Shown here: piece by piece, positions 52,354 to 54,051 of the stretch | Numbering within the stretch: position 1 is the first letter of the stretch | How the letters are laid out: every line of letters begins with the position of its first letter | Origin: a virus | Taxonomy: Duplodnaviria; Heunggongvirae; Uroviricota; Caudoviricetes | DNA: 64,000 bases | IMG/VR virus record: IMGVR_UViG_3300042445_002023 | Direction: 5' to 3' (one strand) | Program-made: the position numbers and the translations under genes | The notes under the pieces: model-generated | The model's input: the letters and a program-made list of their open reading frames with translations, nothing else | Databases searched by the model: none | Told to the model about the DNA's origin: nothing

Positions 52354-52903
52354 GTTATTCGTTGCATTAGAAACCGAACTCCCAAAGGAACTTCTACCAG
52401 AAGGAGTGGAGGTATTTTATACCGGAGTGGGTAAGGTTAATGCTGCAATAAAAGCAACCGAAGTCCTCTCCCCTACATATGAAGTATACAATACTAATAC
52501 AATGGTGTTAAACTATGGTTCTGCCGGCTCAAAATCCACACCAACCCATTCTTTGGTAGAGTGTAAGGTATTTGTTCAAGAGGATATGGATGGTAGACCA
52601 TTTTCACCCCTAAAAACTACTCCCTTTGATAAGGAAATGTATCCACAAATAGGTGATGAACCGATTATATTTGGGGCAGGAGGGTATCTTTGTCATACAC
52701 AAGACCACTTTGAACAAAACCCTAAAAATGGGGTATTTGATATGGAAGCATATGCTTTGGCAAAGGTTTGTAAGATATATGGGTATGATTTTAAGGCTTA
52801 TAAATTCATATCAGATGATGGCAATCCAGATGATTGGGAAGAGAATCACCATTTAGGAGCTGAATTATTTCTAAAAGAATTGAATAAATATTTGGTAGAT
52901 TGA
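52343..52903 (+). CDS. MTA/SAH nucleosidase-like (PNP_UDP_1 family)
   Basis: TGVGKVNAA, NYGSAG, DMEAYALA, KFISD. Confidence 0.85.
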   Translation: MKIKLFVALETELPKELLPEGVEVFYTGVGKVNAAIKATEVLSPTYEVYNTNTMVLNYGSAGSKSTPTHSLVECKVFVQEDMDGRPFSPLKTTPFDKEMYPQIGDEPIIFGAGGYLCHTQDHFEQNPKNGVFDMEAYALAKVCKIYGYDFKAYKFISDDGNPDDWEENHHLGAELFLKELNKYLVD

Positions 52904-52922
52904 GAATAAATTCGTATATTTA
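52891..52922 (+). promoter_or_regulatory. Bacteroidota-type -33/-7 promoter
   Basis: TTTG (52891) N20 TATATTTA (52915). Confidence 0.55.
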
Positions 52923-53017
52923 CATATAAATAAAAACATCAAATGAGATTATGGTTCACGTCCCACCATAGTTAAGTTTGAATAATTGTTAATCAACGGG
53001 ACTAAAAAAACAACAAT

Positions 53018-53188
53018 ATGAAAAAAGTACTATTTGCACTTTTCATCGCAGCAGGTTTAACTGCATGTGGTGGTAACGCTTCGACTGAAGCTACAACTGA
53101 TTCAACGACCGTAGTAACCGATTCTTCTGCAGTAGCAGCTGATTCTACTTCTACACCAGTAGTTGATTCTACTTCAGCAGTGAAGTAA
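53018..53188 (+). CDS. Small Ser/Thr-rich lipoprotein (56 aa, not in ORF track)
   Basis: MKKVLFALFIAAGLTAC-GGNASTEATTDSTTVVTDSSAVAADSTSTPVVDSTSAVK*; lipobox LTAC. Confidence 0.8.
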   Translation: MKKVLFALFIAAGLTACGGNASTEATTDSTTVVTDSSAVAADSTSTPVVDSTSAVK

Positions 53189-53191
53189 TTA

Positions 53192-53234
53192 AGTGGAGCT
53201 TTAGGAGTGTAGGGTTCGAATCCCTACTCCACTC
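53192..53234 (+). ncRNA. tRNA-like minihelix (acceptor stem plus T-arm only)
   Basis: AGTGGAG/CTCCACT 7-bp stem; TAGGG-TTCGAAT-CCCTA T-arm; only 11 nt where the D and anticodon arms would be. Confidence 0.5.
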
Positions 53235-53262: not shown

Positions 53263-53526
53263 ATGAAAACATTTAAAGATATCCAATTCAAAATAAACCC
53301 AATGGGTTCTGATTTTGGAATTGTAAGCAGAACTCAATTCGATAATGGGTATGAAGTATCCGTAGTAAAAAGCCCACATTCATATGGTGGTGATAAGGGA
53401 TTATACGAATTGGCTATTTTCAAAGATGGTGAGATATGTTATGATACTCCAATTACGGATGATGTAATTGGTTATCTAAGACCAGAGGATGTAACCGATG
53501 TAATGGAACGCGTTGAAAAATTATAA
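53263..53526 (+). CDS. Phage hypothetical protein
   Basis: FDNGYEVSVV...YELAI...YDTPITDDVIGYL motif, recognised from phage proteins. Confidence 0.65.
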   Translation: MKTFKDIQFKINPMGSDFGIVSRTQFDNGYEVSVVKSPHSYGGDKGLYELAIFKDGEICYDTPITDDVIGYLRPEDVTDVMERVEKL

Positions 53527-53529
53527 TCC

Positions 53530-54051
53530 ATGTCAGGCAAAGTAATTTTTATAGATGTTGATGGCCCTTTGGCTTGGGGGACGTGGGATGAAGGTAAAGT
53601 AAAAATAATGAAGGGAACTTCGCATGAATTTACAATACCATACCCGTGGGTTAAAGAAGATTGTGATGCACTCGCTGAAATTATAAAACAAACCGATGCA
53701 CGATTAGTAGTATCATCAGATTGGAGAAAGCATTATACTCTTGCTGATTTGGCTATGATATTCGAATACTATGGTATTGGTAGATGGAATTTATTAGATA
53801 CCACCACCCACTTTAATCCTAAAAAGAAAATGAGTTCATCAGGCGAATGGGATAGAGCGTGTGAGATTGAGACATGGGTTAAATCATTCAAACCTACTAA
53901 TTGGATTTCTATTGATGATATGCAATTAAATTATGGTTACAAATCATTAGGTATCGCACAATTTCATCACGTACAAGTTAGTGGTGATTGGGGTAATGGT
54001 GGTAAATTGAGAGATAAGATTGATGAATGTGTTAAAAAATTAAATAGATGA
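53530..54051 (+). CDS. HAD-domain protein of the RNA-repair-associated (Swiss Army Knife) type
   Basis: IFIDVDGPL, VVSSDWR, R..EI..W, WISIDD. Confidence 0.75.
   Translation: MSGKVIFIDVDGPLAWGTWDEGKVKIMKGTSHEFTIPYPWVKEDCDALAEIIKQTDARLVVSSDWRKHYTLADLAMIFEYYGIGRWNLLDTTTHFNPKKKMSSSGEWDRACEIETWVKSFKPTNWISIDDMQLNYGYKSLGIAQFHHVQVSGDWGNGGKLRDKIDECVKKLNR

Follow-up and report, generated by a model that had tools for sequence, protein, structure and literature searches.

Punctuation of mRNAs by tRNAs is a textbook principle in mitochondria. [quoted passage not shown] Phage T4 produces two stable non-decoding RNAs of tRNA ancestry, rnaC and rnaD (119–139 nt), which are processed with its tRNAs, odd tRNA-like genes also occur in phage tRNA arrays, and synthetic minihelices are substrates of CCA-adding enzyme and synthetases in vitro. 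Minihelices consisting of the acceptor stem and T-arm also serve as RNase P substrates (McClain, Guerrier-Takada and Altman 1987, as cited in PMC5499578), and the elbow is the point from which RNase P, RNase Z and the CCA-adding enzyme all measure along the acceptor/T-arm stack (PMC4919913). The t-elements of plant mitochondria carry a T-arm with the sequence GGTTCRANYCC, map to the ends of mRNAs, are cleaved by both RNase P and RNase Z and receive non-templated C or CCA (PMC1920247; PMC5499578), and some of them, such as the nad6 element, lack the anticodon arm (PMC5499578).

Here we describe a 43-nt armless tRNA-like element found in 64,000 nt of DNA from a tailed phage (Caudoviricetes; IMG/VR record IMGVR_UViG_3300042445_002023), which we refer to as the window, together with its relatives in other phages; such armless elements were not found described for phages in the literature we searched. 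We conclude that this is a real and selected tRNA-like module, probably derived from a tRNA gene, with a putative function in RNA processing or 3'-end formation.

Anatomy of the element

The element lies at positions 53192–53234 on the plus strand and consists of a 7-bp acceptor stem, an 11-nt linker, a 5-bp T-stem with a TTCGAAT loop and a final C. The 5' strand of the acceptor stem, AGTGGAG (53192–53198), which is paired in 8/8 aligned sequences, is followed by the linker CTTTAGGAGTG (53199–53209), which takes the place of the D and anticodon arms and includes a D-loop-like GG, and then by the T-arm TAGGG/TTCGAAT/CCCTA (53210–53214, 53215–53221 and 53222–53226) and the 3' strand of the acceptor stem, CTCCACT (53227–53233). 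The C at the discriminator position (53234) is followed by AAA (the downstream sequence is AAATTTTT), and direct reading of the sequence reveals no D arm, anticodon arm or encoded CCA. A first-pass annotation, made from the sequence alone, had described this same anatomy, and the sequence agrees with it throughout.

The minimum-energy fold is the acceptor/T-arm minihelix, both for the element alone (z = −2.1) and in a 211 nt context. Compared with a canonical tRNA, the element has the acceptor stem of 7 bp and the T-arm of 5 bp with its T-loop, and is without the D and anticodon arms and the anticodon. It has the features by which a t-element is recognised, as it mimics the acceptor stem and T-arm with the other arms missing, and the T-arm motif GGTTCGAATCC at 53213–53223 fits the GGTTCRANYCC consensus.

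Partial matches had been expected from tRNA-finding programs, and this was borne out by the Rfam tRNA model (RF00005), which scored 18.4 bits (E 0.48) against a gathering threshold of 29 bits, though not by ARAGORN, which called no tRNA or tmRNA in the 64-kb window. Elements of this kind are missed by ARAGORN and by the Rfam thresholds and so go unannotated. The Rfam alignment pairs CTCCACT with an upstream AGTGAAG (53179–53185), and we rejected this pairing as the upstream strand is unconserved elsewhere (e.g. it is ATGAAGT in L087). Other known RNA classes were also considered and rejected. The tRNA-like domain of a tmRNA does not fit an element whose halves are just 11 nt apart, in a window where ARAGORN finds no tmRNA, and a YrlA-type Y RNA module is not indicated by any Rfam Y-RNA match or by any Ro-type gene among the flanking ORFs scanned. 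The Rfam mascRNA-menRNA model gave no cmscan match at E up to 10.

We ran an architecture scanner on ~2.1 Mb of phage DNA containing nearly 900 tRNA genes, and it returned three element families plus one chance match within a real tRNA. Looser settings applied to a complete 287-kb relative returned this element, one match composed only of A/T, and nothing else. The motif GGTTCGAATCC also has just one copy in the 64 kb. The architecture is thus exact and not random, and chance is excluded.

Element families and the phages that carry them

Family A is represented by the window, L001/L003/L099, L002 and 16 metagenome contigs, and is always placed 2–3 nt behind a Ser/Thr-rich lipoprotein ORF. A diverged set found in L286 and L282, which we refer to as A', follows homologous lipoprotein genes, with the stop codon overlapping the first A of the acceptor stem. 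In this set the linker is AGAGGTAAGY and the T-stem TGGGG/CCCCA, and L282 has in addition the loop TTCGACT and the acceptor 3' strand CTCTGCT. Family B, which follows either an SPFH-like ORF or a different ORF and is known from at least nine contigs, is made up of AAGATAG, TTTGGAA with 4–7 variable nt, a 6-bp T-stem with the loop TTCAATT or TTCGATT, CTATCTT and a C; its linker is 11, 12 or 14 nt long and its helices are constant. Family C (L040:2599–2647, L042:2374–2422 and L046:977–1025) is an armless minihelix of 49 nt located 4 nt after a tRNA and inside a tRNA array. It has a 16-nt linker and an acceptor stem of 8 bp which includes a G-1:C73-like pair, such a pair being a bacterial histidine identity feature.

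Two small features are common to all of the families. One is a C directly 3' of the acceptor stem, mostly as CAA (window 53234; L286:774; L010:2796; L040:2646–2647). C73 is found in just 16 of 637 phage tRNAs (2.5%), and CAA is the commonest non-CCA trailer after the discriminator in the tRNA genes of related phages. The other is the linker GG, which may dock on the T-loop in the manner of G18/G19 of the D-loop and so act as a D-loop mimic. We also note a 34-nt hairpin in L301 (G006:111296–111329), with an 8-bp stem abutting a short G/C stem, a TTCGACT loop and no linker at all; this is possibly a still smaller 'microhelix' relative, or else an unrelated hairpin.

The relatives are IMG/VR contigs of 237–335 kb from lake water, a size which identifies them as jumbo phages. 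No close cultured phages were found by blastn, and tblastn with the HAD protein encoded downstream of the element (see below) produced only Stenotrophomonas jumbo-phage matches at 34% identity. A Bacteroidota host is suggested by the TTG-N20-TAnnTTT-type promoter, the lack of Shine-Dalgarno sequences and the lipoprotein. In the complete relative G001 (287 kb, the contig of L002) the element is found at 109771 and 25 tRNA genes and a tmRNA at 158–165 kb, so that the element is solitary and outside the tRNA array, some ~48 kb from it. The tmRNA (158606–158951, tag GVNNYALAA) heads this 25-gene array. The related phage's own tRNA genes are also without CCA, and no match to a CCA enzyme (PF01743) or RNase Z was found in the relatives bearing family A, which means that host enzymes must already serve CCA-less phage substrates.

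In the arrays of distant relatives, many canonical T-arms are not part of any tRNA called by ARAGORN (L040:1207–1223, 1307–1323 and 1590–1606; L023:500–516 with L024, L035, L043 and L054; L023–L046 and similar loci). One conserved set of these shows compensatory T-stem changes (ACGGG/CCCGT vs ACCGG/CCGGT), and these T-arms are probably parts of odd tRNA-like genes that have escaped annotation.

Conservation and covariation

All 43 nt of family A are identical in the 16 metagenome contigs, and the complete 287-kb phage (L002/G001) differs at one linker base. Identity within the family is 0.997 (14 distinct contexts), compared with 0.76 for the 150 nt of upstream coding flank and 0.60 for the 150 nt downstream, in a set collected with a search pattern that fixed 21 nt and left the remaining 22 nt free to vary. 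These 22 nt are invariant in all 16 metagenome copies, and the linker base in L002 is the sole change among them.

When A and A' are taken together, 48/48 pair cells are standard, with one compensatory swap of A-U to G-C in the T-stem and two one-sided changes to G.U, the latter being those by which the L282 strand CTCTGCT keeps its pairing; 8/11 linker columns differ between the two sets. A covariance-model alignment of A, A' and B gave 100% pairing with 4/7 acceptor pairs altered on both sides, a score reached by 0/500 shuffles and with slid controls pairing at 46–65%, where it should be noted that the alignment was fitted to the structure and the A-versus-B covariation amounts to about one split between two groups. 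Within family B, the outer T-stem pair swaps between C-G and U-A. MAFFT gave no in-register alignment of family A with B or C, and we infer the homology of A and B from their common position and design. A covariance model (R1) based on family A alone proved too specific to its sequence and was set aside, and its extra full-length matches were fragments of real tRNAs.

Across the families T54, T55, C56 and A58 of the T-loop are kept and variation is restricted to positions 57 (G/A), 59 and 60, which are sites at which real tRNAs vary. Changes that preserve G.U count as pairs only in plus strand RNA, and the selection therefore makes sense for an RNA read from that strand. The element is under purifying selection at the RNA level and is a real, selected mimic of the top half of tRNA. 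Such a mimic was the core of the first-pass reading, which is upheld by the strong conservation, the compensatory changes and the tRNA-like variation of the T-loop, and the covarying stems that it had proposed to look for in related phages were found across A, A' and B. It had also named an alternative, in which GGAG pairs with CTCC in a simple hairpin that acts as a mere terminator. This fails, as GGAG/CTCC is lost in A' (linker AGAGGTAAGY) and in B, and the terminator scan is silent.

The lipoprotein unit and its neighbours

The ORF upstream of the element (53018–53188, plus strand) encodes a 56-aa lipoprotein rich in D-S-T motifs with an LPAM_1 lipobox match, and its stop codon is 3 nt before the element, as had been claimed. 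Homologues of this lipoprotein precede every A and A' copy. A putative promoter (52892–52922, plus strand) is formed by TTG, 20 nt and TATATTTA, with the motif TTCGTATATTT within it (the promoter scan reports TTGGTA-17-TATATT). This motif has exactly one copy in the window and recurs before the homologous lipoprotein genes in L282 and L286, whose units also have an equivalent of the 5' UTR hairpin TATGGT/ACCATA read from the sequence at 52950–52970 (plus strand). Another hairpin, of 7 bp (TACTTCA/TGAAGTA, 53170–53187), spans the last lipoprotein codons and the stop, directly before the minihelix, and at this spot a hairpin is kept in other copies with other letters (ACTTC/GAAGT in L087 and ACTAC/GTAGT in L002).

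Downstream on the same strand are an 87-aa ORF of unknown function (phrog_4074; 53263–53526), which is the usual downstream neighbour and starts 28 nt after the element, and a HAD_SAK_2 phosphatase-like gene (53530–54051; E 6.6e-19). The first-pass annotation had drawn attention to the HAD gene as lying about 300 nt downstream. The distance is correct (296 nt), but this gene is not a specific partner of the element: it has 65 viral relatives, and together with the 87-aa ORF it is present in most relatives without any minihelix. In relatives the 87-aa ORF is preceded by element A, element B, a real tRNA-Arg or tRNA-Trp, or nothing, and in distant relatives the HAD and 87-aa genes are embedded in large tRNA arrays. 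As most relatives have the same flanking genes without the element, it must be dispensable.

In every case the element is found at the 3' end of an ORF and on the same strand, from 3 nt past the stop codon to overlapping it. The type of element tracks the upstream gene and not the downstream gene. For example, the 87-aa protein of the window shares 86% identity with that of L016, which has element B, compared with 49% with that of L002, which has element A. The element travels with the upstream gene, the lipoprotein ORF and the minihelix being parts of one unit with the promoter and the 5' hairpin. Its edges are sharp, as similarity to the contigs of relatives breaks off at 53189 and 53233 (loose ends).

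The terminator scan of the window did not call the element, the T-run beginning 4 nt after the stem. In L286 the unit runs from the promoter through the ORF, the minihelix, a long hairpin and a strong intrinsic terminator ~100 nt on to the next promoter, and with this separate terminator the minihelix is there an internal feature of the transcript and not a terminator. The long hairpin between the minihelix and the intrinsic terminator (L286:776–842, with an equivalent in L282) is conserved, with the strands AGCTCATA and TATGAGCT enclosing ~40 nt, and could be liberated from the 3' UTR of the A' units as a small RNA.

Assembled contigs from six metatranscriptome runs (Logan) provided RNA data for lake water, and such contigs cannot show RNA ends. 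A 232-nt contig from run X15 with a depth of 63 covers 52949–53179, beginning just past the predicted promoter and stopping 13 nt short of the element. For contigs on neighbouring genes the depth is 2–9, compared with 63 here, where contig depth cannot rank genes and the libraries may contain DNA, and we take the X15 contig as a hint at most and read nothing into the gap in coverage over the element. Contigs with depths of ~900–2600 (runs X15–X17) match only ~53057–53101 and lack 3 nt at 53075. They come from diverged homologues of the lipoprotein, which would accordingly seem to be highly abundant in metatranscriptomes of lake water.

Origin of the element

The element probably derives from a tRNA gene by internal deletion. 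This is supported by family C, in which the linker resembles the 3' anticodon stem and variable loop of tRNA-Glu(UUC) at 10/16 positions. No parent tRNA of A, B or C was found among the 882 phage tRNAs compared, and a search for full-length IMG/VR tRNAs with an AGTGGAG/CTCCACT acceptor stem produced nine matches and no parent. Most of the nine were tRNAs for Met(CAT), Ile or Pro, in which the discriminator was A and the T-arms were unrelated. A weak TAGGAG resemblance to tRNA-Gly(UCC) was noticed by eye.

We also looked for a host tRNA or att source and found no match to the 3' half of the element in 185,579 species genomes; the A' version of the 3' half gave two genome matches, both of which were unrelated RNAs. 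We rejected an att-type tRNA fragment, as both acceptor strands are present and there is no host tRNA match.

Discussion

Given the structure of the element, its RNA-level selection, its fixed position and its linkage with the upstream gene, the explanation that we tentatively favour, at a little under even confidence, is a cis-acting module resembling t-elements and mascRNA which is read by the host RNase P, RNase Z and CCA-adding enzyme and sets the 3' end of the lipoprotein mRNA. A tRNA gene would have lost its D and anticodon arms to become a cis-acting RNA module, keeping the 12-bp stack of acceptor and T-stem and an intact T-loop, which is the part that RNase P, RNase Z and the CCA-adding enzyme recognise. 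The minihelix would form the 3' end of a self-contained unit with its own promoter, 5' UTR hairpin and small lipoprotein ORF, fold once transcribed, and be cut by host tRNA-processing enzymes on the 5' side, the 3' side or both. Such a cut would fix the 3' end of the lipoprotein mRNA and uncouple it from the RNA that follows (the 87-aa ORF in the window; the hairpin and terminator in L286), and the 43-nt piece, perhaps with CCA added, would be either released, as for mascRNA and the plant t-elements, or retained as a tRNA-like 3' cap. Three roles had been put forward in the first-pass annotation, a decoy, a processing signal and a tRNA remnant, and a putative processing signal is the best anatomical fit among them, as the element always marks the 3' end of a gene, with which it travels, and is distinct from the terminator in L286.

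Position also bears on which side might be cut. In A' and B the acceptor stem begins within the stop codon, and an RNase P cut at +1 would therefore give an mRNA without a stop codon. As bacteria pay a price for such mRNAs, the cut would more plausibly fall on the 3' side, leaving the minihelix as a cap, or else be a regulatory or down-regulating one. Were cleavage to make stop-less messages, the tmRNA encoded by G001 would become relevant. The invariance of the family A linker represents more constraint than a bare RNase P/Z signal needs, and this counts against processing as the main explanation.

The same invariance, seen across lineages whose flanks are 60–76% identical, would be expected if the product were instead the released 43-nt RNA with CCA added, acting in trans as a non-decoding top-half. 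We regard this as unlikely. Such an RNA might be a decoy, a sponge or a regulator, and as a decoy it would be aimed at host factors or defence toxins that act on the acceptor end or elbow of tRNAs, with the strong lipoprotein promoter supplying the quantity. The GG kept in all of the linkers and possibly docking on the T-loop, the rare discriminator C shared by all of the families, and the placement of family C in a tRNA-gene slot 4 nt after a tRNA, as would be expected of a small-RNA gene, are consistent with this. However, there is no known target and no linked defence or anti-defence gene, most relatives are without the element, and the linkers of A, A' and B are almost wholly different, so that no common sequence-specific target is evident. 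Nor is there a recognisable aminoacylation identity set (G3:U70 is absent, and G-1:C73 is found in family C only), and a purely trans role leaves the tight juxtaposition to stop codons unexplained. It is distinctly improbable that large phages of Bacteroidota make an abundant CCA-tailed 43-nt top-half tRNA via a strong lipoprotein transcript, or keep a tRNA-like 3' cap, in order to act on the host machinery that handles or targets tRNAs. If they do, then such a sponge for enzymes, toxins or translation factors binding the acceptor end or elbow would be the phage counterpart of the tRNA-like 3' ends of plant viruses and of RNA decoys.

A plain hairpin, whose likeness to tRNA would reflect ancestry alone, could protect the mRNA 3' end from exonucleases or terminate weakly at a T-run without any part being played by tRNA enzymes, and in the window the T-run CAAATTTTT does follow an element that ends a unit with its own promoter. 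We consider this a rather poor prospect and reject an intrinsic terminator, as the T-run starts 4 nt past the stem, is absent from the A', B and C copies and is not called by the terminator scan, L286 has its own strong terminator ~100 nt downstream, and a hairpin has no need of T54-T55-C56-R57-A58 or of the 7/5 geometry, yet both are preserved across the families. A DNA boundary or recombination site for the exchange of modules between phages would explain why the element sits at junctions, as A has four downstream contexts and B is found between three gene pairs, and why homology to the contigs of relatives stops precisely at 53189 and 53233; it is nonetheless highly improbable, as keeping G.U pairs and compensatory changes is sensible only for plus strand RNA, the element is always on the coding strand at the 3' ends of ORFs, no integrase or homing endonuclease was seen beside it, and no host tRNA shares its 3' half. 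A tRNA gene that had lost its middle and survived by chance or hitch-hiking as an inert relic might account for the real tRNA-Arg and tRNA-Trp at the matching spot before the 87-aa ORF in distant relatives, for the HAD and 87-aa genes lying inside tRNA arrays there, and for the linker of family C. The remnant proposed earlier probably holds as a statement of origin, given this tRNA-Glu-like linker, but not of inertness, as the element is selected: 43/43 positions are conserved against 24–40% flank divergence, the adjacent coding sequence evolves faster than the element, compensatory changes are present, and the same architecture occurs in three families. The diverged A' copies argue against all of the copies being recent transfers of one cassette, and we hold an inert relic to be very improbable.

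If RNase P or RNase Z does cut the element, as under the processing explanation that we favour, then phages of Bacteroidota use tRNA punctuation on mRNAs, for which no phage description was found in the literature searched, and this would account for a small accessory gene taking its own 3'-end signal along when it moves from one genome to another. The constancy of the linker and the presence of C73 in every family point to a recognition feature, and at 43 nt the element offers a ready-made minimal natural substrate for work on the RNase P, RNase Z and CCA enzyme of Bacteroidota.

Comparison with known systems

Like the t-elements (Hanic-Joyce 1990; Forner et al. 2007, PMC1920247), the phage element is a degenerate tRNA-like structure that has kept the acceptor stem and T-arm. 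T-elements occur at the 5' or 3' ends of mRNAs and sometimes extend into the reading frame, a placement comparable to that of the phage element at the 3' ends of ORFs. They differ in being organellar and mostly 70–75 nt long with a degenerate D arm, in contrast to the 11-nt linker of the phage element, which belongs to a mobile unit with its own promoter and whose cleavage is putative. With mascRNA and MEN-beta it shares a non-decoding tRNA-like fold at the end of an abundant transcript, but the latter are nuclear RNAs of eukaryotes, in which the fold is a full cloverleaf-like one of ~61 nt. Synthetic minihelices have the same 12-bp coaxial stack and are laboratory constructs with no linker, whereas the phage element is natural, conserved and has an 11-nt linker with GG. 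Finally, rnaC and rnaD of T4 sit inside a tRNA cluster, while element A is ~48 kb from such a cluster and attached to an mRNA, and it is family C that is located in an array of this kind.
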